Of a stretch of DNA of 38,077 nucleotides, positions 10,770 to 36,151 are shown one piece after another. The DNA comes from Candidatus Omnitrophota bacterium (GTDB lineage: Bacteria > Omnitrophota > Gorgyraeia > Zapsychrales > JAHFFX01). Where the stretch lies: the NCBI GenBank assembly GCA_023247755.1, contig JAHFFX010000002.1, positions 1-38,077 on the forward strand, read 5' to 3'. How positions within the stretch are numbered: position 1 is the stretch's first letter; each line of letters opens with the position of its first letter. A model generated the notes under the pieces. That model did not search any database, was not told the DNA's origin, and saw nothing but the letters and a program-made list of their open reading frames with translations. Both the position numbers and the translations under genes were made by a program.

Positions 10770-10772
10770 TCC

Positions 10773-20905: not shown

Positions 20906-21001
20906 GGCCAGCATCTGGAATTTTCCATTGATGAGCCGCGTCCTTGCTTCTTGTGCCGTCAAAGGCGGGAGGCGGGGAGAAAAAGTGAGGGGAGGGTTTC
21001 C

Positions 21002-21283: not shown

Positions 21284-21298
21284 TGGGATCGCCAAGCT

Positions 21299-21814: not shown

Positions 21815-21882
21815 CCCACCGAAGTGCCGGTCTTGCCTGCCTCCGTTGCTTCCTCTATATATATAAATCTATTAATTATTCC

Positions 21883-21910
21883 TTGACAAAGGGAGAGTCT
21901 GTAATAAAAT
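21883..21910 (+). promoter_or_regulatory. strong sigma70-like promoter ahead of the ligase-led gene block
   Basis: -35 TTGACA (21883-21888), then 16 nt, then -10 TAAAAT (21905-21910). AT-rich UP-like DNA including (TA)5 lies immediately upstream. Confidence 0.55.
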
Positions 21911-21912
21911 CG

Positions 21913-21934
21913 AAATAGTAAAATTTTACTATTT
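21913..21934. promoter_or_regulatory. perfect 22-bp palindrome overlapping the predicted transcription start; candidate PadR-type operator
   Basis: AAATAGTAAAA|TTTTACTATTT contains TAGT-N8-ACTA, which resembles the ATGT-N8-ACAT layout reported for PadR-family operators. Confidence 0.45.
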
Positions 21935-22023
21935 TTGGCATTGGAGCTAAACTCAAGCAAAATCAGGGTATTCGGGAGAATACGGAAGTTTTATTGCCTT
22001 AATTTAAGCATGCCTCCGGACGT

Positions 22024-23538
22024 ATGAACATCCTCGAAGTCCTTCATAAAACCGCCAATCTTTATCCGCAAAAGCCGGCTCTTGTTTTTAAAGAAGAGAC
22101 CGTCAGCTTTTCCCAGCTTCATGACCGCGTTCTTAAGTTCGCCAATGGCTTAAAGAAGGAAGGGGTCGCGAAGGGGGACAAGGTCGCGATTTACCTGCCG
22201 AATTGCCCGGACTATGTTTACAGCTATCTGGCGGTATTCGGCCTGGGGGCGGTGGGGGTTCCTCTCGATTATGTGCTCAAAGCGGATGAATTGATCTCCT
22301 GCCTCGGGCATTCCGAGGCCAAGCTGTTGATCGCCCGTCCCAACCAGGAAGTGGATCTGACCGTGGTCCAGAAGGCCGTCCCGTCCCTTAAGAAGATCGT
22401 GGGAGGGGGGGAAGCCAGCGGGGGAGGGCGCCTGCTCGAAGATATCCTGAGAACGGAAAGCCCCCAACCCATTTCGCCGGCCATTGCGGGAAGCGATCCC
22501 GCGCTGATCATGTACACTTCCGGGACGACCGGCAAACCAAAGGGAATACTCCTTACCTATAAACACCTCGATGGGTCCCCTATGGCCATGAAGCATTTCG
22601 TGGACCTTTCCGAGCGGGACGTCAAACTTTGCGCTCTTCCTCTCAGCCATATCGGTGGTTTCATCTACATTCAAAACATGATCCATTACGCCACTACTCT
22701 CATCCTCATGGACCGGTTCAATCCCTTCGAGTTCCTGGGACTTATTGACCGTTTTAAAGTGACCTGTTTTCATATTGTCCCTCCCATGTACACCGCGATC
22801 CTTACTCTCAAACAGATCGAAAAGTTCGATCTTTCTTCGTTACGCTGGATGGTCGTCTTCGGCGCGCCCAGCTCGCCGGAGATCCTCGAGCGTTTTCATC
22901 GTTATTGCCCCAATGCCCGGCTCCTCAACGGCTGGGGCATGACCGAAACCTGTCCCCCCAACACGGTTACCCCCATGGATTCAGATAAGATTTCCAGCGT
23001 CGGCAAACCCGCCCCGACCTGTGAGATCAAAATATTCAACGAGCACGACCGCGAGGTCGGGATCGGTGAGATCGGCGAGATCGTCATCCGCGGCTGGGTC
23101 GTCATGGCCGGGTACTATAAGGACCCGGACAGCACTGCCGAGCTCATGCGTAACGGATGGTTCCATACGGGGGACCTGGGGCGCTTCGATGCGGAAGGGT
23201 TCCTTTACATCGTCGGCCGCAAGAAAGAGATGATCAAGGTGGGCGGACAGATTGTTTACGCTCCCGAGGTCGAATCCGCGCTTTACAAGCACGAAGCGGT
23301 GGCGGAAGCCGCCGTTATCGGTATTCCCGACGCGTTGCGCGGGGAGGCGGTGAAAGCGTTCGTGGTCCTTAAGGAATTGGCGAGCGTTTCGGTGGAGGAC
23401 CTGCGCTATTTCGCCCGCGAACACCTGGCGCACTTCAAGGTCCCGCATTCCATCGAGCTGCGGCAGTCCCTGCCCAAGAACCGCACCGGCAAGATCGATA
23501 AGGAATTATTAAAACAGGAAACGATTATTCTGAAATAA
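22024..23538 (+). CDS. AMP-dependent acyl-CoA synthetase/ligase (ANL superfamily)
   Basis: IMYTSGTTGKPKG (A3/P-loop), GWGMTE, YHTGDLG, GRKKEMIKVGG and PKNRTGKI are present. Confidence 0.92.
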   Translation: MNILEVLHKTANLYPQKPALVFKEETVSFSQLHDRVLKFANGLKKEGVAKGDKVAIYLPNCPDYVYSYLAVFGLGAVGVPLDYVLKADELISCLGHSEAKLLIARPNQEVDLTVVQKAVPSLKKIVGGGEASGGGRLLEDILRTESPQPISPAIAGSDPALIMYTSGTTGKPKGILLTYKHLDGSPMAMKHFVDLSERDVKLCALPLSHIGGFIYIQNMIHYATTLILMDRFNPFEFLGLIDRFKVTCFHIVPPMYTAILTLKQIEKFDLSSLRWMVVFGAPSSPEILERFHRYCPNARLLNGWGMTETCPPNTVTPMDSDKISSVGKPAPTCEIKIFNEHDREVGIGEIGEIVIRGWVVMAGYYKDPDSTAELMRNGWFHTGDLGRFDAEGFLYIVGRKKEMIKVGGQIVYAPEVESALYKHEAVAEAAVIGIPDALRGEAVKAFVVLKELASVSVEDLRYFAREHLAHFKVPHSIELRQSLPKNRTGKIDKELLKQETIILK

Positions 23539-23540
23539 GC

Positions 23541-23570
23541 CGCAGGGGCCGCACATGTGCGGCCCCTGCG
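23541..23570 (+). terminator. perfect 30-nt palindromic hairpin after the ligase gene (attenuator, terminator or stabiliser)
   Basis: CGCAGGGGCCGCACA|TGTGCGGCCCCTGCG is followed by cATTTTa. Only 23 nt separate it from the next start codon. Confidence 0.4.
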
Positions 23571-23593
23571 CATTTTAACGAAAGGAAAATGGC

Positions 23594-24358
23594 ATGCAAA
23601 ACAAGACCCAAAGAATGACCCGCCCGATCCACATGACCGGGCAGGACCTCACCGGCATGGTGCAGCTGCGCCCGACCGACATCGGCAAGTACGCGATCGT
23701 TCCGGGGCCCAAGGAGCGGCTGGACAATCTCGTCAAGAAGATGGAGAACCCTATCAAGAACTTCACTTTCATGGAATACAACATGTATACCGGAACTTAT
23801 CAGGGGATCAAGATCACCGGTGTCAACGGGGGGCGCTTCTCGGCGGACACCGCGATCACCACGGAACTCCTGTGCAGCGCCAAGGCGCAGAACATGATCC
23901 GCATCGGCAGTTGCGGCGCCCTTTCCGATGAGATCAACATCGGCGATATCGTCGTCGTCGATGGGGCGGTGCGCGGCGATGGCGTCACGCCATATTACGT
24001 CAATCAGGACTTCAAGACCGTCACCGATAAGAAGCTCACCGACATGGTCTTTGAGATCGCCGGCAAGACCGGGCACAAGGTTCACCGCGGCAAGGTGTGG
24101 ACCACGGACGCGATCCTGCGCGAGACCGACGAATACGTCAACGGCGCCATCGACCAGGGCGCGATCGCCGTGGACATGGTGTCGTCGGTGTTCTTGACGC
24201 TCTGCCAGCTTTATGAGATCCCGGCGACCGTGATCCTGGCGGTCTCCGATAACATCATCACCGGGGAGATGGGATTCCTTTCGCCGAATTATTACATGGC
24301 GGAGAGTTCTTTGGTCACGATCGCGCTGAATCTGGTGAAGAAGCTCGAAGGAAAGTAA
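23594..24358 (+). CDS. PNP/UDP-family nucleoside phosphorylase (uridine-phosphorylase-like; substrate unknown, possibly 5'-deoxyadenosine/MTA)
   Basis: IRIGSCGAL, GDIVVVDGAVRGDG and AVDMVSS are present, laid out like hexameric Udp/PNP enzymes. Confidence 0.8.
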   Translation: MQNKTQRMTRPIHMTGQDLTGMVQLRPTDIGKYAIVPGPKERLDNLVKKMENPIKNFTFMEYNMYTGTYQGIKITGVNGGRFSADTAITTELLCSAKAQNMIRIGSCGALSDEINIGDIVVVDGAVRGDGVTPYYVNQDFKTVTDKKLTDMVFEIAGKTGHKVHRGKVWTTDAILRETDEYVNGAIDQGAIAVDMVSSVFLTLCQLYEIPATVILAVSDNIITGEMGFLSPNYYMAESSLVTIALNLVKKLEGK

Positions 24359-24362
24359 ATAG

Positions 24363-24430
24363 GGTCACCCGTCACCAGTCACAGGTCACCACAAAATTAC
24401 TTGGTGACTTGTGACGTGTGACATGTGACT
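24363..24430. repeat. heptad-periodic inverted repeat element E1
   Basis: GTCAC occurs at 24364, 24371, 24378 and 24385. GTGAC occurs at 24404, 24411, 24418 and 24425. The arms pair as 14 bp + 5 bp + 6 bp, separated by 2x2 mismatches, around a 10-nt loop (24392-24401). Confidence 0.85.
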
Positions 24431-24451
24431 ATGTAGATTTAATGGTGAAAA

Positions 24452-25426
24452 ATGAAAGAATCCCCGCTTTTCTGGCCCGCGCAATTCAAAGGGAACGTGC
24501 TTCACGTTCTCGATGAGACGCAGGTCCCGGAGAAATTACATTATGTGAAGGTCCGCAACGTCAAGGAAGCGGTGAAGGTCATCCGGAACATGAAGACCCG
24601 GGCCTTCGGGCAGTTCCTGGTCGTGCTGAGCACCTTTCTTTTGGTGTTGAAGAACTCGAAGGTTCGCACCCCGACGGCGCTGCTTTCCGAACTGGAACAA
24701 ACGGCGGAAGCGCTCAACACGAGCCGCCCCACGTTCCCTTTCCGGGAAGTGACGTCGATCGTGGTCGCCTGGGCGAAGGACGCGATCCAAAAGAACATCG
24801 AGCTGCGTCCGTTCCTTGAGAAGAACATCCAGGGTTATTTGATGGGGATCCGTCAGCGGCGCCTGCAGCGGGTCAACGAGATCGCGGAGCTTTTGCGGGA
24901 CGGCGACCGCGTCCTCACGCATTGCAACGTGAGCGGCGAGCTTGCCATGGCCTCGCAGATCGCGCGCGAGCAGCGCAAGTTCGTGCAGTTCTTCGCGACC
25001 GAAACGCGCCCTTATTTTCAAGGGGCGAAACTGACCTGCTGGGAATTGCAGAAGGCCGGCACGCCGGTGACCCTGATCGCCGATAACGCCGTGGGGACCG
25101 TCCTCGCGGACGGATTGGTGGATAAGGTGATCGTTGGGTCCGACCGCTCCTGCGCCAACGGCGACATCGCCAACAAGATCGGGACCTATCAGATCGCGGT
25201 GCTGGCGAAGGAATTCGGGACACCTTTTTACGTTCTTACCCAGCCGTCCAACAAGATCCCGCGGGGGGAAGACATCCCCATCGAGGTCCGCAATCCCGAA
25301 GAGCTTTTGACGTTCGGGAAAAAGCGGATCGTCGCGGGCAAAGTGAACGCCTTCTATCCCGGCTTCGATGTGACGCCGAAGGAATTGATCGAAAGGGAGA
25401 TCGCCATCAATGCACAATCTCGTTAA
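24452..25426 (+). CDS. eIF-2B alpha/beta/delta-family sugar-phosphate isomerase (MtnA-like, divergent)
   Basis: LTHCNVSG (catalytic Cys context), ETRPYFQGAKLTCWEL, VIVGSDRSCANGDIANKIGTY and FYVLTQ are present. The N-terminal region diverges from canonical MtnA (MKTRAFGQF instead of M.VRGAPAIG). Confidence 0.8.
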   Translation: MKESPLFWPAQFKGNVLHVLDETQVPEKLHYVKVRNVKEAVKVIRNMKTRAFGQFLVVLSTFLLVLKNSKVRTPTALLSELEQTAEALNTSRPTFPFREVTSIVVAWAKDAIQKNIELRPFLEKNIQGYLMGIRQRRLQRVNEIAELLRDGDRVLTHCNVSGELAMASQIAREQRKFVQFFATETRPYFQGAKLTCWELQKAGTPVTLIADNAVGTVLADGLVDKVIVGSDRSCANGDIANKIGTYQIAVLAKEFGTPFYVLTQPSNKIPRGEDIPIEVRNPEELLTFGKKRIVAGKVNAFYPGFDVTPKELIEREIAINAQSR

Positions 25427-25925
25427 GCCGGTCGTCATCGTTCAGGGAGTGGTGGAGGCCCGGCTCTTTGATGAATTAAAGGGAAAAGGGGTTACGGAAG
25501 TTTATGTCCTGGAAGGCCGTCCCACGCTCGAGGCGGCGCGGCGCGCCAGCGCGGAGCTTCTTAAGCGCGGCATGACGCCGACGCTCATTTCGGACAACAT
25601 GGCCGGCGTGCTTTTTTACAAGAATCTGGTGAAGGAAGTCTGGATCGCTTTCCAATACGCCGATGAGGAAGGAGCGGCCTGTGACATCGGCGCGCTCATC
25701 CTGGGCGTTCTGGGAAAGCGGCACGGCGTTCCCGTGCGGCTATTTCCGTCGGCGCGGAAAACGAATTTCCTGGGCCGTTCGCAGGACCTCCTCAGTTTCC
25801 TTTCGAAACGCATCGCCCCCAAGGGCGTGGAGGCGTTCGTGCCCCTGGTGGAATGGGTGCCGGCGAAATATATTTCCGCAGTTCCGAAACCCCTGGCCGA
25901 AGATCTGCAGGACGCTCACGTATGA
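25410..25925 (+). CDS. stand-alone half-length eIF-2B/MtnA-like protein (C-terminal Rossmann-like domain only, catalytic motifs absent)
   Basis: The ATG lies 10 nt after AAGGGAG (25393-25399) and overlaps the upstream gene by 17 nt. VYVLEGRPTLEAARRASAELLKRGMTPTLISDNMAG...GALILGVLGKRHGVPV parallels the ETRP...G.P.TLI.D.A...NKIGTY...A..H..P segment. Confidence 0.6.
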   Translation: MHNLVKPVVIVQGVVEARLFDELKGKGVTEVYVLEGRPTLEAARRASAELLKRGMTPTLISDNMAGVLFYKNLVKEVWIAFQYADEEGAACDIGALILGVLGKRHGVPVRLFPSARKTNFLGRSQDLLSFLSKRIAPKGVEAFVPLVEWVPAKYISAVPKPLAEDLQDAHV

Positions 25926-26950
25926 ATGAAGGAATCGCAAAATTAAAGACCGACATCATTGCCATCGGGCGCCTTTTGTGGGACAAGGACCTGGCGAGCG
26001 GGCTTAACGGCAATTTAAGCGCCCGGGTGAGCAACGACGAGATCCTTTTGACCGCGACCCACACCTGCCTGGGGCTGCTGAAGGACAACGACATTTTGCA
26101 TATGAAGCTGGATGGAACGCTTCTTGAGAAGGGAAGCGTATCCACCGAGAAACTTCTGCACACTGAGATCTACAAGAACTTTCCGGACGTGAGCGCGGTC
26201 GTCCATACCCACACGACCTTCACCAACGCTTATTTCCTGGCGAACGACAAGTTCTCCCCGACCACCTATGAAGCGAAATTCTACATCGGGGAAGTGCAGG
26301 GGATCCCCCAGAAAACGCCGTCGGTGACCGACGCGGGGCCGGTCGTTGAGGAACTGAAGCGCAACAGCATCACCGTCCTTAAGAATCACGGGGTCGTCGC
26401 GATGGGCAAGGACCTGTTCGATGGTTTCCTGCTGATCCAGCAGCTTGAGGAATCGATCAAGGTGGACGCGATCAGCCGGTTGTACCAGGTGAATGCCTCG
26501 GGTGCCCAGCGCCCAGCGCCCAGCGTGCAGCCCGCAATGCATAGCGCTCAACCGTCTTCCTTCGGGAACGGGAAGAAATTCAAGCTGTTTTCAAAGGAGC
26601 AGATCGAAGAGATCGTGCGAATCGTGAACGCCGATGCGCAACTGAAGGAATTGGGCGAGAAGACCAAGATGACGATGGACCTGGCGGTGCAGCTCAACGA
26701 AACGGGGGAGACCTACAGTTTCAGTTTCCAGAACGGCCGCATCGCCAAGATCGGCAACGATACCCAGGCGGAATTCCTGATCACTGCTCCTGAAACGGTC
26801 TGGCGCGCGGTGTTCAACCGCCAGATCGATCCGTTCGTCGCGACGACGCAAAAGAAGATGAACCTGCGCGGGGATTTCGCGAAGATTTCGAAATGGTATT
26901 CGCCCTGCAGCCGCATCTTTGAACTTTGGGCCCAGGTGCCGGTGGAATAA
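25922..26950 (+). CDS. class II aldolase/adducin-family protein (MtnB/FucA/Ald2-like) fused to a C-terminal SCP2 sterol-carrier-like domain
   Basis: There is an ATGA overlap with the upstream stop. GLNGNLSARV, STEKLLHTEIY, VVHTHT and LKNHGVVAMG (Zn His ligand positions) are present. A linker ...GAQRPAPSVQPAMHSAQPSSFGNGKK is followed by ~105 aa that read SCP2-like (...DLAVQLNETGETYSFSFQNG...KKMNLRGDFAKISKW). Confidence 0.75.
   Translation: MNEGIAKLKTDIIAIGRLLWDKDLASGLNGNLSARVSNDEILLTATHTCLGLLKDNDILHMKLDGTLLEKGSVSTEKLLHTEIYKNFPDVSAVVHTHTTFTNAYFLANDKFSPTTYEAKFYIGEVQGIPQKTPSVTDAGPVVEELKRNSITVLKNHGVVAMGKDLFDGFLLIQQLEESIKVDAISRLYQVNASGAQRPAPSVQPAMHSAQPSSFGNGKKFKLFSKEQIEEIVRIVNADAQLKELGEKTKMTMDLAVQLNETGETYSFSFQNGRIAKIGNDTQAEFLITAPETVWRAVFNRQIDPFVATTQKKMNLRGDFAKISKWYSPCSRIFELWAQVPVE
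26504..26531 (+). repeat. tandem heptanucleotide repeat (GCCCAGC)x3 + GTGCAGC inside the aldolase-SCP2 linker
   Basis: The units start at 26504, 26511, 26518 and 26525, as read directly from the sequence. Confidence 0.9.
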
Positions 26951-28449
26951 TGCCAACGACCGTTAACATCGAAGAATACCGGATGCTCATCGATGGCCGG
27001 CTAACGCCGGCCCGGGAGCGACGCTCGTTCGAGAGCGTGAATCCTTCCACGGGGGACGTGTTCGCCAGGGTCTCCGATGCCGCAATCGAGGATGTCCAGG
27101 CAGCCATCGCGGCGGCGCGCCGCGCGTTCGACGAAGGGCGCTGGCCGGGTCTCACCTTGGCCCAGCGCGGGAAATTTCTCAAGACGATCGCCGATCTTAT
27201 CCGTGAGAACGCCAAGGAATTGGCCGAGCTCGAGACCTTGAGCACCGGAAAAACGCTCAAGCAGACGACCTTCATCGATGTGCCGACCTGCGCCGATACG
27301 TTTGAATATTTTGGAAGTATTCCCGATCTTTTAAGATCAAGGGAAAACCCGGTGAACGCGCCGGTCAAGAGCCTGACCGAACGCGAGCCGCGCGGGGTGG
27401 TGGCCTGTATCATTCCCTGGAACTATCCTTTGATCATGGCGGCCTGGAAGCTGGCGCCGGCGCTGGCCGCCGGGAATACCGTTATCCTGAAACCTTCGCG
27501 TTTGGGGAGCGTTTCGATCCTCAAGCTCGCGTCCCTTATAGAGAAAGCCGGGTTGCCGGCGGGCGTGGTGAATGTGGTCGCGACGACGCAGGAAGCTGCG
27601 GCCACGGCCCTGGTCAAAAGCCCGCAGGTCGACATGGTGAGCTTCACCGGCGGCACCGCTACCGGCCAGAAGATCATGGCCTGGGCGGCGGAGACGACGA
27701 AGAAGGTCTCGCTCGAGCTCGGGGGCAAATCCCCGAACCTCGTTTTCGCGGATTGCGATTTTGAGGCGGCGTTGGGGGGAACGATGTCGGCCATCTTCAT
27801 GAACCAGGGACAGATGTGCACGGCGGGGGCGCGGCTCTTGCTGGAAGACAAGATCTACGACCGCTTCCTCGAAGAACTGGTCAAGCGGACCAAGGCGCTT
27901 AAGATCGGCAACGCGTTCAACCATGAGACCGAATTCGGCCCGCTGGTGAGCCTTGAACAGCGCAACGGTGTTCTCAAGTTTATAGAGAAGGGCAAGTCGG
28001 AGGGGGCGAAAATTGCGACCGGCGGGCGAATTCCGCCGGGGGCGGAATTCGCCCGGGGGGCGTTCCTCGAACCCACCATCTTTACCGACGTTCGTCCGGA
28101 GATGTTCATCGCCCAAGAAGAGGCGTTCGGCCCGGTCCTTGCCGTATTCAAGTTCTCCGGTGAAGAAGAAGCCGTGCGGCTCGCCAACGATTCAAAGTAC
28201 GGGCTCGCCGCCTGCGTCTGGACCAAAGATGAAGAGAAGGCCCGAAGAATTTCGAAAAAACTGCAGTGCGGCACGGTTTGGGTGAACACCTATGGAGGGT
28301 TCTACAACGAGGCGTCCTTCGGCGGCACCAAGCAGAGCGGTTTCGGCCGCGAGCTCGGTATCGAGGGACTTTTAGAATATACACAGACGAAGCATGTTTG
28401 TATCGACCGCACGCCCGGGGGGAAACCCCTGGCCGCGGCCTGGTTCTGA
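26950..28449 (+). CDS. NAD(P)+-dependent aldehyde dehydrogenase
   Basis: The ATG overlaps the upstream TAA (TAATG). WNYPL, ELGGKSP, FMNQGQMCTAGARL (catalytic Cys) and EEAFGPV are present. Confidence 0.93.
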   Translation: MPTTVNIEEYRMLIDGRLTPARERRSFESVNPSTGDVFARVSDAAIEDVQAAIAAARRAFDEGRWPGLTLAQRGKFLKTIADLIRENAKELAELETLSTGKTLKQTTFIDVPTCADTFEYFGSIPDLLRSRENPVNAPVKSLTEREPRGVVACIIPWNYPLIMAAWKLAPALAAGNTVILKPSRLGSVSILKLASLIEKAGLPAGVVNVVATTQEAAATALVKSPQVDMVSFTGGTATGQKIMAWAAETTKKVSLELGGKSPNLVFADCDFEAALGGTMSAIFMNQGQMCTAGARLLLEDKIYDRFLEELVKRTKALKIGNAFNHETEFGPLVSLEQRNGVLKFIEKGKSEGAKIATGGRIPPGAEFARGAFLEPTIFTDVRPEMFIAQEEAFGPVLAVFKFSGEEEAVRLANDSKYGLAACVWTKDEEKARRISKKLQCGTVWVNTYGGFYNEASFGGTKQSGFGRELGIEGLLEYTQTKHVCIDRTPGGKPLAAAWF

Positions 28450-28544
28450 CTGGACGGCCCTAACAAGGCCGGGATCTTTTTGCTGACGCAAGGGATCAAA
28501 CAAGTGAAGACAATCCGATCCACCATAAAAAGGAGAATCGAAAA

Positions 28545-30026: not shown

Positions 30027-30027
30027 T

Positions 30028-30099
30028 CGTCGCTCGGGGCACGTGACTCGTGATCCGTCCGAGTATTGGCGGGTCACGGTCCACGTGTCACGGAACACA
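30028..30099. repeat. heptad-periodic inverted repeat element E2
   Basis: The left register has CGTC, CGGG, CGTG, CGTG, CGTC at 30028, 30035, 30042, 30049 and 30056. The right register has CACG, CACG, CACG, CACA at 30075, 30082, 30089 and 30096. The arms pair imperfectly (6 + 4 + 4 bp). Confidence 0.7.
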
Positions 30100-30115
30100 C
30101 AAAGGAACTACGAGA

Positions 30116-30397
30116 ATGAACCCAGCTCAAACACATCCCAGGCTCGCCTGGGAACCATCCGCCCAGGAGCGTTATAAATTGATGATCGCGAAGATCCCGC
30201 TCTTCCACCGCGAGATCGCCAAGATCGTCGTCGATAAGAAAGCCGAATTGAACGCCATCGACCGGGGGGCCTCCCGGGTGGAAGAACCCGACATCGTGCG
30301 CGCGTTCCTCACGGAAGTGCCCGTCGCTTTTTACGGTCTCATGGTCCGTCTTTTGGATGAAGTGGGCTTTGAGCATCGGAAGTACGAAACCAAGTAA
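30116..30397 (+). CDS. small PCP_red-like protein (protochlorophyllide reductase subunit B C-terminal-domain family)
   Basis: I chose the internal ATG at 30116 because the longer ORF-track N-terminus runs through E2. AWEPSAQERYKLMIAKIPLFHREIAKIVVDKKAELNAIDRGASRVEEPDIVRAF fits W.P.A...L..IP.F.R......E..A...G...V. Confidence 0.6.
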   Translation: MNPAQTHPRLAWEPSAQERYKLMIAKIPLFHREIAKIVVDKKAELNAIDRGASRVEEPDIVRAFLTEVPVAFYGLMVRLLDEVGFEHRKYETK

Positions 30398-30450
30398 GAA
30401 CTATGCGCGGATGCGTCGTATTGGATCACGTAGATCGGGAATCACATACC

Positions 30451-30915
30451 ATGGAAAAAACCAATCATCATTTTGTTTTCATCGAGGCCCCGGTGGACAT
30501 CGTGGGCCCGCAGATCATTGCCTGGGGGGAGGCTTCCTGGTGGCCCGAAGGTTCCCAAATGCGTTTTAATAAGACCACCTCCGGGGAATTGGGGATCGGC
30601 ACGGAATATGAGATGCGGATCAAGGCCCCGTTCGTGTCACCCTTGTCCTGCCGGGTCACGAAACTGGACCCCGCCCGGGAGATCGAACGCACGTTCCTCA
30701 CCGGTATGTTCAAGGGGCGCGAGATTGTCAGCGCCGAGGAACGGTATAACGGAACGAAAGTGAAATATACCATGTATTACCAGGTCCAAGGAATCCTTAA
30801 CGCGATCTTGTGGCCGATCCTCTTTCGTCGTTTGCACGATGCGAACATCGAGCTGATCATGGCGGCCCTCAAGCGATATTGCGAACAAAAGGCCAATCCT
30901 CCGGAGGGGACATGA
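30451..30915 (+). CDS. SRPBCC-superfamily protein (polyketide cyclase/dehydrase-like START fold)
   Basis: It starts at the ATG at 30451 (MEKTNHHFVFIEAPVDIV...). Length and pattern (I.AP...V, W.P, G.G, GT.V.Y...) are typical of Polyketide_cyc2-type proteins. Confidence 0.6.
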   Translation: MEKTNHHFVFIEAPVDIVGPQIIAWGEASWWPEGSQMRFNKTTSGELGIGTEYEMRIKAPFVSPLSCRVTKLDPAREIERTFLTGMFKGREIVSAEERYNGTKVKYTMYYQVQGILNAILWPILFRRLHDANIELIMAALKRYCEQKANPPEGT

Positions 30916-31925
30916 ACATCGCGGTCATCGGCGCGGGGGCGATCGGCTCGGTCGTAGCCAGCTATCTGACGAAGGCGGGAGTGTCGGTCACCCTCATCGG
31001 CCGGCCGGACCAGGTCACGGCGATCCGCAAGAGCGGTCTGCATGTGATGGGTGTGCGGGGGGAGGAAACGTTCCAGTTCCCCGCCCTGATGAAACTGGAC
31101 AAGGCCTATGATGTCGTTATCTTTACCGTCAAGACTCAGGACCTCGAATCGGCCTATCTGGAGAACCAGGACCATCTGGAGTCGGGGTTCATCCTTACCA
31201 CGCAGAATGGCGTTCAGGCCGATAATGTCCTCAGCAGCCACTTCGAGCGGGATAAATTGATCAGCAGCATCGTGATGTTCGGGGCGACCTACGTGCGCCC
31301 CGGGGAAGTGACCTTCAATTTTGAGGGCGACTGGATCATCGGCAAACCCTATTTTCCCAACGATCCCTTCGTGCATGAGCTGGCGGGAGTCCTGCAAAAA
31401 GCTTTCAAGGTCAACGTCTCCAATGACATCATGGGAATGAAATGGCTCAAGCTCTTCATCAATTTCAACAACTGTATCCCGGCGCTGCTGGGAAAGTCCA
31501 TGCAGGAGACGTTCGCGGACCTGGACTTTTGCCGCCTGAGCATGCTGCTTCTTAAGGAAGGCATCGAGGTGACGCGCAAGGCGGGGGTGAAGCTGGTTTC
31601 GCTGCCGCAGTTCCCGGTGGAGCGCATCGATGGACTTTCGGCGATGCCCGTTGAGCAGGGGGCGGCGATCGTCAATAAGACCCTGACGGGGTTGAGCAAG
31701 GAGCCGCTGTACGGTTCCATCCTGCAGAGCATCATGAGAAAGAAGACCAGCGAGATCGATTTCATCAACGGGGAAGTGGCCCACCTGGCGCAGGCGATGG
31801 GTCTGTCGGCGCCCCTCAACCGCAAGATCGTGGACCTCGTGCACGAGGTGGAGCGGGAGGGGAAGTTCTTCTCGCGGGATGAAGTGAAGAGGAAATTTAG
31901 TTTGAGTTCGCCTGGTGACCGGTGA
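30912..31925 (+). CDS. ApbA/PanE-family NAD(P)H-dependent 2-oxoacid/ketone reductase (ketopantoate-reductase-like)
   Basis: There is an ATGA overlap with the SRPBCC stop. MNIAVIGAGAIGSVVASYL, VKTQDL and EIDFINGEVAHLAQAMGLSAPLN are present. Confidence 0.85.
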   Translation: MNIAVIGAGAIGSVVASYLTKAGVSVTLIGRPDQVTAIRKSGLHVMGVRGEETFQFPALMKLDKAYDVVIFTVKTQDLESAYLENQDHLESGFILTTQNGVQADNVLSSHFERDKLISSIVMFGATYVRPGEVTFNFEGDWIIGKPYFPNDPFVHELAGVLQKAFKVNVSNDIMGMKWLKLFINFNNCIPALLGKSMQETFADLDFCRLSMLLLKEGIEVTRKAGVKLVSLPQFPVERIDGLSAMPVEQGAAIVNKTLTGLSKEPLYGSILQSIMRKKTSEIDFINGEVAHLAQAMGLSAPLNRKIVDLVHEVEREGKFFSRDEVKRKFSLSSPGDR

Positions 31926-31998
31926 CCAGTCACAAGTCACCAGGGGTTTCCCTGCAATTCAATTAACCGGTAACCGGTGACGTGGTCACTGGTCACAT
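31911..31998. repeat. heptad element E3 (two adjacent self-complementary arrays), overlapping the 3' end of the reductase gene
   Basis: Array a has GTGAC, GTGAC, GTCAC, GTCAC at 31915, 31922, 31929 and 31936, within CCTGGTGAC...GTCACCAGG. Array b has GTAAC, GTGAC, GTCAC, GTCAC at 31970, 31977, 31985 and 31992. Confidence 0.8.
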
Positions 31999-32014
31999 AT
32001 AAGGAAATCAAGCA

Positions 32015-33277
32015 ATGAAAACCAAACGACGCGTCGTAGTGACCGGGGTCGGCATCGTTTCCCCCAACGGGGTCGGGGCCGAGGCCTGCTACCGCAATAT
32101 GATCAACGGTGTGTCCGCCGTCAAAAGGGTGACCGAGTTCGACGTGTCGCTTTTTAACACCAAGATCGCGGCCCAGGTGCGGGATTTCGATCCATGGAAG
32201 CTGGGCCTCACCAGCGAAGAGATCGTGCGCATGGACCGCTACGTCCAGTTCGCGATGGTCGCCGCGCGCATGGCGATCGAGGATTCCAGATTGAACTTAA
32301 GCCAGGTGGACCGGGAGCGCACGGGCGTTTCGCTCGCCAACGCCATCTGCGGCACCAAATATATGGAAGAGGAGTTCGCGCTGGTGACCGACAGCGGCAA
32401 GAACCCGATCGACCCTTCGATCGTGCGTCCGGACCTGTATGATGCCTCCATGTTCAACACGCCCTCGAGCGAGATCTCGGCCAAGTACGGTCTGCTGGGA
32501 GTTTGCAATACGATCTCCACGGGCTGCACCGCCGGGACCGATTCCGTCGGGTTTTCCTATGAAGCCATTGCGGATGGGGAAGCTGATATCATGGTGACCG
32601 GAGCGGCAGAGGCGCCCATCACGCCGATCACCTTTGGCGCTTTCGATACCGTGAACGTCCTGTCGGTGCACAACGAATTTCCGGAAAAGGCTTCAAGGCC
32701 TTTCGACGCCCGTCGTAACGGGTTCGTGATTTCCGAGGGCGCAGGAATTATAGTGGTAGAAGAGCTCAATCACGCCCTCAAGCGCGGCGCCAGGATCTAT
32801 TGCGAAGTGACCGGCTTCGGCACGACGAATAATGCCTTTCACATGACCGACCTGCCCCCCGATGGGGACGCGATGGCGGATTGCATCAACCTTGCCATGC
32901 GGGATGCGGACCTCAAGCCCAGTGAACTCGATTACGTCAACGCGCACGGCTCTTCCACCCGCCAGAACGATGTGTTCGAGACCAGCGCCTACAAGATGGC
33001 GCTGGGAGAATACGCCTACAAGATCCCGATCAGTTCGGTGAAATCCATGATCGGGCATCCGCTGGCCGGGGCGAACGGCATCGAGATCGCTTTAAGCTCG
33101 ATGATCTTTGAGCGCAATATCTTGCCGCCAACGATCAACCAGGAAGAGAAGGACCCCCAATGCGATCTGGATTACATCCCCAACACGGCGCGGGAGAAGA
33201 AGGTGAATTCGATCCTCAAGACGAGCTCGGGATTCTCGGGGATTCATTCGGCTATGGTTTTAGAACGATTTAAATGA
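32015..33277 (+). CDS. beta-ketoacyl synthase, type II PKS KS-alpha-like
   Basis: AAGGAAA precedes the ATG. The active-site context ISTGCTAGTDSVG (Cys codon 32525-32527) resembles the PKS KS-alpha motif STGCTSGLD more than FabF. NAHGSST and SMIGHPLAGANG supply the two catalytic His residues. Confidence 0.88.
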   Translation: MKTKRRVVVTGVGIVSPNGVGAEACYRNMINGVSAVKRVTEFDVSLFNTKIAAQVRDFDPWKLGLTSEEIVRMDRYVQFAMVAARMAIEDSRLNLSQVDRERTGVSLANAICGTKYMEEEFALVTDSGKNPIDPSIVRPDLYDASMFNTPSSEISAKYGLLGVCNTISTGCTAGTDSVGFSYEAIADGEADIMVTGAAEAPITPITFGAFDTVNVLSVHNEFPEKASRPFDARRNGFVISEGAGIIVVEELNHALKRGARIYCEVTGFGTTNNAFHMTDLPPDGDAMADCINLAMRDADLKPSELDYVNAHGSSTRQNDVFETSAYKMALGEYAYKIPISSVKSMIGHPLAGANGIEIALSSMIFERNILPPTINQEEKDPQCDLDYIPNTAREKKVNSILKTSSGFSGIHSAMVLERFK

Positions 33278-33282
33278 TCATT

Positions 33283-33346
33283 GGTGATTCGTGCCTCGTG
33301 GCACGTCAACAAATCACGTGTCACGAGGCACGGAGCACGATACACA
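33283..33346. repeat. heptad-periodic inverted repeat element E4
   Basis: GGTG, CGTG, CGTG, CGTC occur at 33283, 33290, 33297 and 33304. CAC occurs at 33315, 33322, 33329, 33336 and 33343. The 17-bp stem 33290-33306/33316-33332 has a single G-T (G-U) pair and a 9-nt loop. Confidence 0.85.
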
Positions 33347-33365
33347 AATCAGGATTGGAGAAGTT

Positions 33366-34598
33366 ATGGAAAAGATCGCAATAACCGGGCTCGGCATCGT
33401 CAGCCCCAGCGGCATGGACAAACGCTCATTCTGGGCGAACCTGAAGGCGGGTCATTCCAAGGTTGAGAAGATCGAGCGCTTCGATGCCTCCCAATACCCT
33501 TCCCGCATCGCCGGCCATGTTCACGATCTGGACGCCTACAGCAACGTTTCCTCGCGGCTGCTTAAGAAGATCGACGTTTTCTCACACATGGCGCTGGTGG
33601 CTTCGGAGCTGGCGATCCAGGATGCCGCCATCGATATGGCGAAGGAGGATCTTAAGCGTGTGGGGATCTTCATGGGGAACGCCATCGGCGGCTGGCTGTA
33701 CGCCGAGACCGAGCTGCGCGATATGTATCTGGAAGGCCGGGAGGGCGTGAGCCCCTTCATGGCCTCGGCCTGGTTTCCCGCGGCCCCGCAAGGACAGGTT
33801 TCGATCCATTACGGGATCAAGGGCTACAGCAAGACGATCGTTTCCGACCGCGCTTCATCCTTGATGGCGATCGCCTATGCGGCCAAAAATCTTGAGCGGA
33901 ATAACAACGATCTGATCCTCGCCGGCGGCATGGAAGCGCCGGTCACTCCGTACGCGCTTTTGTGCTGCAATACTTCCGGGGTGCTTACGAAGCGCAACGA
34001 TGAGGCGGAAACCGCCTATCGCCCTTTTGACAAGACCCGCGACGGGATGGCGATCGCGGAAGGGGCGGGAATTCTGACCCTGGAGACCGGGGAGCGCGCC
34101 GGCAAGCGCAAGGCCCACGCTTATGGATATATCACCGGTTTCGGCACGACGACCGACGGGGTGGACCGCATCGAACCGGCCGCCGACGGCAAACAGCTTG
34201 CCCGCGCCATCCGCATGGCGCTGGATGACGCGAAGCTCGATCCCAAGGACATCGACTATATTTGCGCCGACGGCGCCGGAACGGTCATCGGCGATATCTC
34301 GGAGACGAAAGCGATCAAGCAGGTCTTTAACGGCAATGCCCAAAAGATCCCCGTCTCCGCCCCAAAATCGATGTTCGGGAATCTGCTGGGGGCGTCGGGC
34401 GCGCTCGATGTGATCCTGACACTGTTGTCCATGGAACATTCGACCGTTCTGCCCACGATCAATTATCTTAAGGCCGATCCGGAGTGCGATCTGGATTATT
34501 GTCCCAACAAGGCGCAGGCGAAAGAAATAAGGAACGCTTTGGTCATTAACCGCGGCCGGGGCGGGATCAACGCCGTCCTGGTGCTACAAAAGAATTAA
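33366..34598 (+). CDS. KS-beta / chain-length-factor-like ketosynthase paralogue lacking the Cys-His-His triad
   Basis: The ATG at 33366 follows GGAG (33357-60); the ORF-track start at 33291 lies in E4. Aligned to the upstream KS, Cys becomes Arg (TIVSDRASS, codon 33849-33851), the first His becomes Asp (CADGAGT) and the second His becomes Asn (KSMFGNLLGASG). Confidence 0.85.
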   Translation: MEKIAITGLGIVSPSGMDKRSFWANLKAGHSKVEKIERFDASQYPSRIAGHVHDLDAYSNVSSRLLKKIDVFSHMALVASELAIQDAAIDMAKEDLKRVGIFMGNAIGGWLYAETELRDMYLEGREGVSPFMASAWFPAAPQGQVSIHYGIKGYSKTIVSDRASSLMAIAYAAKNLERNNNDLILAGGMEAPVTPYALLCCNTSGVLTKRNDEAETAYRPFDKTRDGMAIAEGAGILTLETGERAGKRKAHAYGYITGFGTTTDGVDRIEPAADGKQLARAIRMALDDAKLDPKDIDYICADGAGTVIGDISETKAIKQVFNGNAQKIPVSAPKSMFGNLLGASGALDVILTLLSMEHSTVLPTINYLKADPECDLDYCPNKAQAKEIRNALVINRGRGGINAVLVLQKN

Positions 34599-34659
34599 AA
34601 AGCGTCCCTTAACCCTGCAAGGGGAAAGGGACGCCGTTCTCGTGTTGCAGAAAAGTTAG
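34599..34659 (+). repeat. degenerate tandem copy of the last ~60 nt of the KS-beta gene (non-coding relic)
   Basis: 34632-34659 (cgccgttctcgtgttgcagaaaagttag, reading A V L V L Q K S *) matches 34571-34598 (cgccgtcctggtgctacaaaagaattaa, reading A V L V L Q K N *). TTAACC at 34609 corresponds to 34546. The region contains the hairpin GCGTCCCTT (34602-10) / AAGGGACGC (34626-34). Confidence 0.7.
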
Positions 34660-34665
34660 CTAAGG

Positions 34666-34707
34666 GTCGACAGCCCACTGTCGTCGGTCGACCGTGGTCC
34701 ATGGACT
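34666..34707. repeat. heptad-periodic element E5 (variant motif)
   Basis: GTCGAC-a, GCCCAC-t, GTCGTC-g, GTCGAC-c, GTGGTC-c, ATGGAC-t start at 34666, 34673, 34680, 34687, 34694 and 34701. It contains the small hairpin CGACAG ccca CTGTCG and the palindrome GTCCATGGAC. Confidence 0.6.
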
Positions 34708-34738
34708 CAATGAGAATCAAACCATAGGAGGTTTACTC

Positions 34739-34996
34739 GTGTCAACAGACCAACAGACCACCACCATCGAACAACGCATCAAAGCGATCTTCAACAAGGT
34801 CCTCGATATCGCTCCGGAAGAGGTCAAGCCCGATGACAAGCTCGACGCGTCGCTCGGCATCGACTCCACGGAAATGGTGGAGATCTCGGTGGGATTAAAG
34901 AAGGAGTTCGGCGTGCCGATCGCGGATAATGAGATCAAGAAGACGCACACGTTCAATGAGATCGTTGGGATCCTGAGAACCAAGGGCGCCCGGTAA
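34739..34996 (+). CDS. acyl carrier protein
   Basis: GTG at 34739 lies 7 nt after AGGAGG (34726-31). The phosphopantetheine site is in LGIDSTEMVEISVGLKKEFGV. Confidence 0.85.
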   Translation: MSTDQQTTTIEQRIKAIFNKVLDIAPEEVKPDDKLDASLGIDSTEMVEISVGLKKEFGVPIADNEIKKTHTFNEIVGILRTKGAR

Positions 34997-35008
34997 CAAG
35001 GATTTAGC

Positions 35009-35812
35009 ATGAAGATCATCGACCTGAGCCTTCCCATTGACGATTCCCTTGTGGAGACCCACGATGCCAAGATCGAGCGCATCACGCACGCCGCCGGGGT
35101 GGAGCACTTCAATTGGGTGGTGATGAGTAAACAGCCCAATGGGCAGGAGCGTTTCGACCGGGGCGAGCGGGTCGCGACCGCCGATGAGATCCCCGACGGC
35201 GAAATGCTGTCCTTGGAGATCGTCAATTCTTCCGTCCACATGGGTTCACATGTGGACGCGCCGTTCCATTACGGGTCCACCTGCGAAGGCAAACCCGCCA
35301 AGCAGATCATGGACATTCCCCTGGAATGGTGTTACGGCCCCGGGGTCGTTCTCGATTTCACCTACCTTAAATTTCCCGAATTCATCACGAAAGACCATAT
35401 CGTCGCCGCGCTTAAGAAGATCGATTACCGGCTTACGCCCGGCGACATCGTTCTTCTATATACCGGCGGCGACAAGCTGCTGGGCACGGATGACTACGTC
35501 AACAAATACGTCGGCTGTGTCCCCAGCGCCATTGAATACCTGCTGGATGCCGGCATCAAGATGATGGGCATCGACACCATCGGCCTCGACCGGCCGTGCT
35601 TCCTCATGTTCAAAGAATTCCTCGCGACCAAGGACCGGTCCAAGATATGGCCGTGCCATTTTCTGGGGCGGCGCCGCGAGTACTGTCATATGGAGCGATT
35701 AGGGAATCTTGGAGCTATTCCAAAACCGTTTGGCTTTAAGGTGTCGTGCTTGCCGGTTAAAGTGAGGAATGCCGGAGCAGGTTGGGCCAGGGTAGTAGCA
35801 ATCTTTGACTAG
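35009..35812 (+). CDS. 'putative cyclase' family metal-dependent enzyme (kynurenine-formamidase/polyketide-cyclase family)
   Basis: The family motif HxGxHxDxPxH is present as HMGSHVDAPFH. The C-terminal ...LGNLGAIPKPFGFKVSCLPVKVRNAGAGWARVVAI is typical of the family. Confidence 0.85.
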   Translation: MKIIDLSLPIDDSLVETHDAKIERITHAAGVEHFNWVVMSKQPNGQERFDRGERVATADEIPDGEMLSLEIVNSSVHMGSHVDAPFHYGSTCEGKPAKQIMDIPLEWCYGPGVVLDFTYLKFPEFITKDHIVAALKKIDYRLTPGDIVLLYTGGDKLLGTDDYVNKYVGCVPSAIEYLLDAGIKMMGIDTIGLDRPCFLMFKEFLATKDRSKIWPCHFLGRRREYCHMERLGNLGAIPKPFGFKVSCLPVKVRNAGAGWARVVAIFD

Positions 35813-35819
35813 GGCCGTC

Positions 35820-35866
35820 CGCCAATCCGCAGAAGCGGATTGGCGAGATCTCGCCATCCGCCTTTT
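35820..35866 (+). terminator. double hairpin plus short T-run after the cyclase gene (terminator-like)
   Basis: CGCCAATCCGC agaa GCGGATTGGCG forms an 11-bp stem. The palindrome GGCGAGATCTCGCC follows at 35842-35855, then ...CCTTTTC. Confidence 0.4.
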
Positions 35867-35951
35867 CAATGAGTTTATTGGAGCGGATGGCGGGCTGGGG
35901 CTGGTTGGGCGCGGGTCGTTGCAATCGTCGATTATTAAAAGGGGGGGCGCA

Positions 35952-36143: not shown

Positions 36144-36151
36144 TCGCGCCG

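Follow-up and report, generated by a model that had tools for sequence, protein, structure and literature searches.

A block of 14 consecutive open reading frames (ORFs) at 22024-35812 lies in a 38,077-nucleotide stretch of DNA from a Candidatus Omnitrophota bacterium (contig JAHFFX010000002.1 of assembly GCA_023247755.1; the whole stretch is hereafter called the window), and its hub is a radical S-adenosylmethionine (SAM) enzyme with a B12-binding domain. The block joins this radical SAM (rSAM) enzyme to a series of nucleoside-trimming enzymes, an acyl ligase, and a type II polyketide synthase (PKS)-like set, and the gene set recurs behind a conserved palindrome in related genomes. The following interpretation builds on what is observed: the genes present, the SCP2 fold of the aldolase, and the conservation of catalytic residues, linkage, and operator sequence. 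In this interpretation, the genes form one PadR-controlled biosynthetic operon centered on the B12-domain rSAM enzyme, and the trimming enzymes constitute a dedicated branch that feeds the ligase, not a housekeeping salvage route; we regard it as evenly balanced between being right and being wrong. The results reported here are sequence-based.

Conservation of the Gene Set Across Omnitrophota

Relatives of the rSAM enzyme are encoded in at least 592 stretches in a scan of species genomes (one genome per species). The best 80 of these stretches are almost all titled Omnitrophota or generic "uncultured Planctomycetia," with a few titled Desulfofervidaceae, Syntrophaceae, or Deltaproteobacteria; the complete genome of Candidatus Velamenicoccus archaeovorus LiM is among them. 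Gene neighborhoods were surveyed by tblastn of the window proteins against all fetched loci around rSAM relatives (individual loci are given by their L numbers). In dozens of Omnitrophota genomes, these genes are found together on a single strand, with their internal order shuffled, which bears out the claim of the first-pass annotation that the block is a single unit; no cluster gene was found on the opposite strand in the surveyed loci. In 24 of the 41 loci for which at least 20 kb was fetched, the ketosynthase (KS) part and the trimming part both lie within 10 kb of the rSAM gene.

The gene order of the window recurs in closer relatives (L001, L003, L056, L074, L075, L086, L088, and L091). 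In an example of another order, the cluster starts with small DUF2621-like gene-ApbA-TIGR04076-KS-KS-(rSAM)-acyl carrier protein (ACP)-cyclase-SRPBCC-MFS-short-chain dehydrogenase/reductase (SDR)-(rSAM)-Amidohydro_2 and ends with the trimming genes, i.e., nucleoside phosphorylase (PNP)-isomerase-half-length isomerase-like protein-aldolase-aldehyde dehydrogenase (ALDH). Five loci that appear to carry the KS part only are of the Velamenicoccus type, and the possibility that the trimming genes are dispensable in such clusters was rejected: the genes for the ligase, PNP, isomerase, half-length protein, aldolase/SCP2, ALDH, and rSAM enzyme lie directly upstream in such loci, which carry a second, paralogous rSAM gene at the far end.

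A KS-less form of the cluster occurs in some Omnitrophota and in Desulfofervidaceae (L006, L013, and L026), with the order ligase-(methyltransferase)-rSAM-PNP-isomerase-half-length protein-aldolase/SCP2-ALDH. No KS, ACP, or cyclase gene is present in this form, and L026 is also devoid of a detected ALDH homologue; genes for an MMPL transporter and for DUF1329/LolA-like proteins lie inside or beside the KS-less loci. Because the KS-less relatives keep the trimming genes with the rSAM gene, it is the rSAM enzyme, and not the PKS-like part, to which the "salvage" genes are linked. The invariant core of the cluster is the rSAM enzyme with the trimming enzymes and the ligase, and most Omnitrophota have the PKS-like part in addition. 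The label "deoxynucleoside salvage," given to this module in the first-pass annotation, undersells a module that stays with the rSAM gene even where the PKS-like part is missing.

Sequence identity is highest for the rSAM enzyme, the catalytic ketosynthase (KS-alpha), and the PF04199 "cyclase." These three share 72-89% identity within the window-type (group 5) lineages compared and 45-80% across more distant arrangements, and the cyclase is 80-89% identical to its window-type relatives. They are also the most conserved proteins between the window and L001/L003 (77-83%, with most others at 50-68%). The high conservation of these three proteins suggests that the product is probably central to the cell envelope or to host interaction.

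Omnitrophota-type clusters are also found in metagenome-assembled genomes (MAGs) that are labeled otherwise, namely as a Methanosarcinales archaeon (L055), Pseudomonadota (L059), Deltaproteobacteria (L057), and, in many cases, "uncultured Planctomycetia/Planctomycetales." These odd taxon labels probably reflect mis-binning or generic naming. Velamenicoccus is reportedly a predatory epibiont, and its intron RNA is said to accumulate in dead archaeal cells, which is notable beside the Methanosarcinales-labeled locus.

Regulation of the Operon

Homologues of the PadR gene that lies directly upstream of the block (46-81% identity) precede the cluster in L001, L003, L035, L056, L065, L073, L074, L083, L088, and L091. 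Between the PadR gene and the block lies the sigma-70-like promoter that the first-pass annotation had singled out as the only good one, and a consensus scan agrees that it is the best of the region. Many related loci likewise have its -10 context, "taaaatc," ahead of the palindrome. The palindrome, AAATAGTAAAATTTTACTATTT, follows closely, with its 16-bp core TAGTAAAATTTTACTA placed 5 bases past the -10 hexamer; it occurs as a single copy in the window, against 0.02 expected. With at most two mismatches, it is found in 35 of 94 related loci, the KS-less loci included (copies at 2599-2614 in L001, 3489-3504 in L003, 4321-4336 in L007, 1676-1691 in L056, 5473-5488 in L079, and others). Most copies lie 3-93 nucleotides upstream of the first cluster gene detected, with a few weaker matches within or behind a cluster.

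The PadR gene and the conserved promoter-operator precede whichever gene leads the cluster, and the first gene behind the palindrome varies with the arrangement, being the ligase gene, the small DUF2621-like gene, or the PNP gene. The palindrome is probably the operator of the PadR protein. Its conservation ahead of the first gene is strong evidence for one regulated unit, and the unit starts with the PadR gene and operator, not with the ligase gene at 22024, where the first-pass annotation had set the start. Phenolic or lipophilic compounds are the typical effectors of PadR regulators.

Two further kinds of structured elements occur in the region. The longer gaps of the block hold GTCACNN/GTGACNN heptad arrays, as had been described in the first-pass annotation; these elements were confirmed by hairpin folding and by a count of the pattern GTGACNNGTGAC, which has 15 occurrences against 1.3 expected and is confined to the gaps of this block. 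That these hairpins serve as a conserved element of regulation, either RNA or operator, was considered and rejected, given their absence in 90 of 91 related loci and the lack of a match to an Rfam family, and the arrays are treated as presumptive genome-specific intergenic repeats. Downstream of the block, the double hairpin earlier called terminator-like does fold strongly, but it has no T-run and a terminator scan made no call; it is a possible 3' end or stabilizer.

Gene Set of the Block

The listing of ORFs in the window confirms the 14 + strand genes of the first-pass annotation at their coordinates (Table 1), with all in-frame starts. The internal starts at 25922, 26950, 30116, 30451, 30912, and 33366 encode Met, and that at 34739 is a GTG behind AGGAGG. 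Product lengths were the same in an independent gene prediction on the source contig, which covers 12 of the 14 and leaves the ligase and PNP genes outside its locus; from the isomerase onward, the lengths in amino acids are 324 (gene cut at the locus end), 171, 342, 499, 493, 93, 154, 337, 420, 410, 85, and 267. The described junctions likewise follow from the coordinates and translations: a 17-nucleotide overlap at 25410, ATGA at 25922 and 30912, and TAATG at 26950.

The domain labels of the first-pass annotation all pass the Pfam thresholds, except for "PCP_red-like" and "SRPBCC," which are sub-threshold. The families above threshold are AMP-binding with AMP-binding_C; PNP_UDP_1; IF-2B, at full length in one protein and as the C-terminal half in the next; Aldolase_II with SCP2; Aldedh; B12-binding with Radical_SAM; ApbA with ApbA_C; ketoacyl-synt/Ketoacyl-synt_C in two proteins; PP-binding; and Cyclase (PF04199). 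Co-direction is not special to the block: all Pfam-supported genes of the 38-kb window lie on the + strand, and co-direction by itself therefore cannot delimit the unit. The window holds a reduced version of the cluster, with no homologue of the SDR, MFS, Amidohydro_2, and TIGR04076 genes that most relatives carry.

Table 1. Features of the PadR-rSAM gene cluster in the window.
Feature	Coordinates	Strand	Evidence or remark
PadR-family regulator gene	21299-21814	+	Pfam PadR 43.9 bits; directly upstream of the block
Sigma-70-like promoter TTGACA-16-TAAAAT	21883-21910	+	11/12 consensus positions; best match within 20900-36500
Perfect 22-bp palindrome	21913-21934		Candidate operator; core at 21916-21931
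Acyl-AMP/CoA (or ACP) ligase, FadD/MenE type, 504 aa	22024-23538	+	AMP-binding 303.6 bits
Hexameric (DeoD/UP-type) nucleoside phosphorylase (PNP)	23594-24358	+	PNP_UDP_1 121.6 bits
GTCACNN/GTGACNN heptad arrays, long hairpin	24364-24434		Similar elements at 30043-30054, 31915-31996, 33284-33338
MtnA-like (5-substituted) ribose-1-phosphate isomerase	24452-25426	+	IF-2B 187.8 bits
Half-length IF-2B-like protein, C-terminal Rossmann half only	25410-25925	+	IF-2B profile positions 132-271 only
Class II (Zn) aldolase-SCP2 fusion	25922-26950	+	Aldolase_II 123 bits; SCP2 23.7 bits
NAD(P)-dependent aldehyde dehydrogenase (ALDH)	26950-28449	+	Aldedh 575 bits
B12-binding-domain radical SAM enzyme (rSAM)	28545-30026	+	Pfam B12-binding plus Radical_SAM
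Small DUF2621/PCP_red-like protein, 93 aa	30116-30397	+	Sub-threshold: DUF2621 21.4 bits; PCP_red E = 0.064
SRPBCC-like protein, 154 aa	30451-30915	+	Polyketide_cyc2 21.5 bits (cut-off 27.4)
ApbA/PanE-type NAD(P)H ketoreductase	30912-31925	+	ApbA 105.8 bits plus ApbA_C 66 bits
KS-alpha, triad-bearing ketosynthase	32015-33277	+	ketoacyl-synt; Cys171/His311/His348
KS-beta, triad-less ketosynthase-fold partner	33366-34598	+	Arg/Asp/Asn; 33% identical to KS-alpha
Acyl carrier protein (ACP)	34739-34996	+	PP-binding 44.7 bits; phosphopantetheine Ser in DS motif, "LGIDSTEM"
PF04199 "cyclase" family metal-dependent hydrolase/cyclase	35009-35812	+	Cyclase 98 bits; HxGxHxDxPxH motif
Two strong hairpins, possible 3' end or stabilizer	35813-35900	+	Minimum free energy -52.4 kcal/mol

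Radical SAM Enzyme

The CxxxCxxC motif of the rSAM enzyme (C209/C213/C216) is invariant, and cobalamin binding is predicted. Its nearest curated relatives are BchE and HpnJ, although it misses the NCBIfam cut-offs widely (BchE, 179.2 bits against 481; HpnJ, 128.9 against 578; the ladderane-type model TIGR04072, 76.2 against 360), and its assignment as an orthologue of BchE, HpnJ, or the ladderane-type enzyme was rejected. Solved structures match it only weakly, the matches being AprD4, TokK, and CysS. More than 120 cluster representatives are 75-88% identical to the rSAM enzyme, and those named by NCBI are Candidatus Omnitrophica or Omnitrophota. Among 1.84 billion representatives at 50% identity, a single full-length one is 84% identical, after which identity drops to 47, 42, and 40%.

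The 97 rSAM copies cluster into several paralogous groups, each with a characteristic position. Velamenicoccus-type and L011-type clusters contain two paralogous B12 rSAM genes (6763-8232 and 18864-20351 in L092; 1-1288 and 10001-11446 in L011), one after the ALDH gene and the other after the Amidohydro_2 gene; the window holds only the first type. Lone members of the family, 49-66% identical to that of the window, are present in L023, L025, L040-L042, L048, L049, and L054. Their neighbors are unrelated (NrdD with its activase, cytochrome c assembly, TetR, and a DEAD-box helicase) and give no functional hint, and at least one of these contigs seems to bear a full cluster elsewhere.

Nucleoside-Trimming Enzymes and Ligase

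The PNP is of the DeoD/UP type and not of the MtnP type. Aligned with the adenosine phosphorylase of Bacillus cereus, it retains both the phosphate-binding residues (PG..R, RIGSCGA) and the catalytic Asp within "VSDN," and it lies well below the model cut-offs of HpnG (46.8 bits against 187.1) and futalosine hydrolase (28 against 125). The isomerase scores 236.8 bits with the NCBIfam MtnA subfamily (cut-off 271) against 138.5 with ribose-1,5-bisphosphate isomerase, exceeds the cut-off of the eIF-2B_rel model (197 against 185.85), and aligns its catalytic Cys (THCN) and Asp (GSDR..NGD) with those of Thermotoga maritima MtnA. The half-length protein next to it contains neither catalytic residue, the N-terminal part bearing the Cys and the GxDR/NKIGT motif both being absent. 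It adjoins the isomerase in all lineages, at 27-60% identity, and is likely a non-catalytic partner of the isomerase.

The aldolase residues E76, H95, H97, and H156 are invariant in 26 homologues and reproduce the FucA pattern of Glu73/His92/His94/His155, and the aldolase fold matches those of fuculose-1-phosphate aldolases and of DrdA from Bacillus thuringiensis. The top 50 fold matches of the full-length model align approximately 180-220 of its 342 residues, consistent with an N-terminal aldolase domain. The C-terminal 126 residues give a weak match by sequence profile against the PDB (E ~0.6); their structural model, however, has a predicted local distance difference test (pLDDT) value of 94.4 and a template-modeling (TM) score of 0.83 to the SCP2 protein of Thermus thermophilus, and UbiJ-SCP2 and human SCP2 are also matched. 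The modeling thus confirms a genuine SCP2 lipid-binding fold in the predicted structure. The aldolase-SCP2 fusion is retained in distant KS-less relatives (42% identity of the SCP2 part in L006). The ALDH has both its Glu (ELGGKSP) and its Cys (QMCTAG), and judging from these residues the PNP, isomerase, aldolase, and ALDH are apparently catalytically active.

The catalytic motifs of the ligase are likewise intact. Its closest NCBIfam model is the long-chain-fatty-acid--CoA ligase PRK06187 (461 bits), and the acetate--CoA ligase model gives 271 bits only. Ligase orthologues, 38-69% identical, are present in related loci, the KS-less ones among them.

Phosphorylase, MtnA-type isomerase, and class II aldolase together match the defining composition of the dihydroxyacetone phosphate (DHAP) shunt, in which MtnP or MtnK, MtnA, and Ald2 convert 5'-deoxyadenosine or 5'-methylthioadenosine (MTA) to DHAP and an aldehyde, and which involves no dehydrogenase (PMC10986504; PMC12632272). 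An unlikely alternative to a dedicated branch is, on this basis, plain salvage beside the main producer: the three enzymes would clear inhibitory 5'-deoxyadenosine (and MTA) formed by the rSAM enzyme, ALDH would detoxify acetaldehyde, and the ligase, KS pair, ACP, and cyclases would make up a separate polyketide/lipid pathway with a starter from central metabolism, both sets being co-expressed owing to heavy rSAM turnover. The ordinary catalytic residues of the three enzymes agree with such a role, as does the B12-domain class of the rSAM enzyme, since known B12-domain rSAM enzymes release 5'-deoxyadenosine. However, a housekeeping route would act for every rSAM enzyme in the cell, whereas these genes are linked to one family through many rearrangements in at least two phyla. 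The distribution in the 41 long loci, with both modules near the rSAM gene in 24 and the rSAM gene alone in 8, likewise does not correspond to a general, pathway-independent role. Salvage also leaves unexplained the conserved SCP2 fusion, the conserved inactive half-isomerase, the linkage to the ligase, the MMPL/LolA-like genes interleaved in L026, and the single operator before the whole set.

Polyketide-Like Part

Two ketosynthase-fold proteins, an ACP, and candidate reducing and cyclizing enzymes make up the remainder of the block. The Cys/His/His triad of KS-alpha is kept in all 51 orthologues (51/51). Among solved structures, it is closest to the actinorhodin KS (386 bits) and the anthraquinone KS of Photorhabdus (377), with FabF enzymes slightly behind (at most 362). 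Among the NCBIfam models for FabF, KS-alpha passes the subfamily NF005589 (435.7 against 387) and falls below the equivalog TIGR03150 (449.4 against 493.75). KS-beta had been noted as lacking the triad, and this is indeed so: Arg, Asp, and Asn replace Cys, His, and His, and all 54 orthologues (54/54) have Arg (43) or Lys (11) at the Cys position with Asp and Asn at the two His positions. The best solved relatives of KS-beta are FabF enzymes. Both KS proteins and the ACP give sub-threshold matches to cispentacin models.

The nearest solved relatives of the PF04199 protein are isatin hydrolase and kynurenine formamidase. SRPBCC proteins of the same clusters elsewhere pass the Pfam cut-off that the protein of the window misses, with related proteins in the same position in L015, L037, and L088, and the small DUF2621/PCP_red-like gene always adjoins the ApbA-type reductase gene in related loci. 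As stated in the first-pass annotation, the fab genes are missing: a Pfam scan detected no FabD, FabG, FabZ, FabI, or other fab genes in the window.

In most related clusters, a protein with two TIGR04076 repeats (CYH...FC.G...TCPDGG motifs) is encoded between the ApbA reductase and KS-alpha (2553-3122 in L011, 471-1145 in L018, and 6796-7398 in L079), and the window contains no such gene. In L044, L053, L062, and L066, the TIGR04076 ORF continues from the upstream ApbA-type gene, which suggests fusion with the reductase. The tandem protein has no Pfam match and no PDB match by profile.

Two other products could be read from these genes, both of which we consider improbable. In the first, the product would be a small cofactor or signal of aromatic or quinone-like nature, made anaerobically: the KS pair would build a short poly-beta-keto chain that the SRPBCC and PF04199 proteins cyclize; in relatives, Amidohydro_2 would decarboxylate and a methyltransferase would methylate the product, and an oxidation or ring closure that needs no oxygen would fall to the BchE-like rSAM enzyme. 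The SRPBCC and cyclase proteins, the Amidohydro_2 protein of relatives, and the UbiG/UbiE-like methyltransferases in L001/L003-type and KS-less (L006) loci fit this proposal, as do the usual ligands of PadR regulators and the best curated rSAM model, BchE, an anaerobic oxidative cyclase. Furthermore, Omnitrophota are reported to have no recognized source of 4-hydroxybenzoate for ubiquinone (PMC10066038). Against it, the trimming module, the SCP2 domain, and the MMPL/LolA-like exporters are left without a function in this proposal, and the KS-less variants would form no ring; moreover, an aromatic product is compatible with a dedicated trimming branch and does not exclude it.

In the second, a ladderane-like fatty-acid pathway, the FabF-like KS pair and the ACP would elongate a chain on which the B12 rSAM enzyme performs methylation, cyclization, or cross-linking while it is bound to the ACP, the product would be a membrane lipid typical of Omnitrophota, and the trimming genes would be accessory. 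Both the FabF subfamily match of KS-alpha and the FabF relatives of KS-beta agree with this, known ladderane clusters combine FabF homologues, ACP, and a B12 rSAM enzyme (PMC13459092), and automated mining has reported "ladderane" clusters in Omnitrophota MAGs (PMC9902471). The proposal is nevertheless countered by the absence of FabD, FabG, FabZ, and FabI from the window, by the score of the rSAM enzyme far below the ladderane-type cut-off, by the position of KS-alpha nearer to type II PKS ketosynthases than to FabF, and by the KS-less variants, in which the rSAM pathway can run without a KS.

Proposed Pathway

Returning to the dedicated trimming branch, we infer its substrates, direction of flow, and product from the sequences. 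The rSAM enzyme is the sole SAM-consuming enzyme of the cluster and hence the likely source of the nucleoside; it would make a 5'-substituted 5'-deoxyadenosine from SAM. The DeoD-type phosphorylase would remove adenine to yield a 5-substituted ribose-1-phosphate, which the MtnA-like isomerase with its inactive half-size partner would convert to the ribulose-1-phosphate. Cleavage by the class II aldolase would then give DHAP and an aldehyde, X-CH2-CHO, whose oxidation by ALDH would provide X-CH2-COOH, and the FadD/MenE-type ligase would activate this acid. In the window and in most Omnitrophota, the acid would be transferred to the ACP and extended by the pair of KS-alpha and inactive KS-beta, followed by reduction by the ApbA-type reductase (together with the SDR in most relatives) and release or cyclization by the PF04199 enzyme and the SRPBCC protein. 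In KS-less relatives, the activated acid would be used directly and exported by the MMPL and LolA-like proteins. The joining of the ligase to the trimming block, and then to the ACP and KS pair, is expected if the acid is the starter unit.

Priming by an acid that arises from the aldolase, ALDH, and ligase steps had been suggested in the first-pass annotation. The steps are chemically precedented, since the fluoroacetate route uses the same enzyme order (PMC3999930); for the present genes, the priming stands as a proposal by analogy. The suggested class of product, a modified polyketide or lipid, is supported by the relatives of KS-alpha, the inactive KS-beta, the SCP2 fold of the aldolase, and the exporters in relatives, which are of the MFS or MMPL/LolA-like kind.

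The group X may tentatively be taken as a hydrophobic, carbon-linked one: an adenosyl group would be added to a lipid-like substrate and trimmed to its C5'-C4' part, left as -CH2-COOH. A hydrophobic X is favored because the aldolase bears a conserved SCP2 lipid-binding domain, and also because of the long-chain-type ligase, the MMPL/LolA-like exporters among the trimming genes in L026, and the persistent linkage. The plainer alternative that X is H, such that the by-product 5'-deoxyadenosine would be turned into acetate as starter, appears only slightly less probable. More broadly, it is conceivable, if still speculative, that SAM acts as a radical donor of two carbons (a carboxymethyl group), the resulting acid priming type II PKS-like elongation or, in the KS-less variants, going to direct export.

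Several points weigh against the dedicated branch. The rSAM enzyme is unrelated to known adenosyl-adding enzymes; the models of HpnH and MqnE are not among the 17 NCBIfam families that match it at E <=0.001, so that the likeness to these enzymes would be one of pathway logic only. It also keeps a B12-binding domain, which is superfluous for a simple adenosyl-radical addition. PNP, MtnA, and a class II aldolase are the exact set of the DHAP shunt, which makes plain salvage a real alternative, and in 8 of the 41 long loci the rSAM family member has no other cluster genes nearby. The window version has no SDR, dehydratase, or exporter, and the PKS chemistry is not readable from the gene content. 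Finally, the ligase could activate an unrelated starter instead.

Genes Flanking the Operon in the Window

A + strand glycogen/alpha-glucan run occupies 499-12290 of the window and comprises genes for a glycogen-phosphorylase-like protein, branching enzyme, GH57 plus DUF3536, and GH77 4-alpha-glucanotransferase, broken up by thyA-folA and an EAL response regulator. The 664-amino-acid protein encoded at 13981-15975 has weak matches of the coiled-coil type only (crescentin rod, below threshold). Close upstream of the PadR gene lie a DeoC/LacD-family class I aldolase gene (18885-19676) and two small thioredoxin-like ORFs (20597-21283). Both are outside the conserved cluster of the relatives, in which CBS, two small ORFs, and a pyruvate-kinase-barrel protein are found there instead.

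Novelty and Significance

All parts of the operon belong to known protein families, and the combination of a B12 rSAM enzyme, a KS pair, and an ACP is of a type recognized by mining tools. The new features are the fixed coupling of the rSAM enzyme to a ligase and to a trimming branch like that of the fluoroacetate pathway, the variant forms of aldolase (fused to SCP2) and isomerase (half-length), the inactive KS partner of the Arg/Lys type, and the phylum-wide conservation behind one operator. That no characterized cluster has this composition, as stated in the first-pass annotation, agrees with targeted full-text literature searches and with the portions consulted of Omnitrophota genome papers, in which none was found.

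Omnitrophota are abundant, almost wholly uncultured, and ultra-small, and some of them prey on or attach to other microbes. The operon is among the most conserved accessory gene sets of this phylum, and it brings polyketide priming together with radical SAM catalysis and with what becomes of the adenosyl half of SAM, three fields that are normally separate. A new starter-unit pathway would be defined if the ketosynthase is supplied by the trimming branch; if the rSAM enzyme adenosylates a substrate, this would be a new strategy of C-C bond formation in lipid or polyketide biosynthesis. The two-carbon-donor chemistry, if true, would be shared by an entire phylum of uncultured nanobacteria. For future studies, the 14 genes fit one expression construct, and the conserved, predicted PadR operator provides a handle for induction.

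Comparison With Known Systems

The operon shares with the anammox ladderane clusters a B12-domain rSAM enzyme, two FabF-like proteins, and an ACP, and the antiSMASH ladderane class is likewise reported for Omnitrophota MAGs in the mining study. Unlike those clusters, it has no FabZ or phytoene-desaturase-like gene, and nucleoside-trimming genes are not described in ladderane clusters. With type II PKS systems (actinorhodin KS/CLF/ACP; cispentacin AmcF/AmcG/AmcB), it has in common an active KS, an inactive KS-fold partner, and a discrete ACP, with SRPBCC and "cyclase" genes adjoining the KS/ACP genes. The partner, however, has Arg or Lys at the Cys position, not the Gln of the chain-length factor (CLF), and both His residues are gone too; there is no malonyl transferase, and the hosts are uncultured nanobacteria of the Planctomycetes-Verrucomicrobia-Chlamydiae (PVC) group and not actinomycetes.

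In the futalosine pathway (MqnE plus MqnB), adenosyl is added by MqnE, and just two ribose carbons remain in the product. In the making of the extended-hopanoid side chain, HpnH similarly adds adenosyl to diploptene, followed by the action of the PNP homologue HpnG (PMC13459092). The likeness to both lies in an rSAM enzyme that adenosylates a hydrophobic or aromatic substrate, after which a PNP_UDP_1-family enzyme takes off adenine. The B12-domain rSAM enzyme of the operon is unrelated to theirs, and the isomerase, aldolase, and ALDH have no counterpart in those pathways. The DHAP shunt is closer in enzyme content, since its phosphorylase, MtnA-type isomerase, and class II aldolase are all present here with their catalytic residues; the block differs in its DeoD/UP-type phosphorylase, inactive half-isomerase, SCP2-fused aldolase, and additional ALDH and acyl ligase, and it sits in a biosynthetic operon that is tied to one rSAM family.

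The fluoroacetate (fl/nob) pathway of Streptomyces cattleya and Nocardia brasiliensis has the same four-enzyme series: a phosphorylase, an MtnA-type isomerase, a fuculose-type class II aldolase, and an ALDH convert 5'-fluoro-5'-deoxyadenosine to fluoroacetate (PMC3999930), and in general terms the series turns a 5'-X-5'-deoxyadenosine into adenine, DHAP, and X-CH2-COOH. No fluorinase/chlorinase (SAM halogenase) domain was detected in the 37 window ORFs scanned with Pfam, and the rSAM enzyme would supply the nucleoside here. The aldolase is fused to SCP2, and a ligase and a KS/ACP set are added. Whereas the fl aldolase and dehydrogenase are unlinked, all four trimming enzymes are encoded side by side here in one operon.

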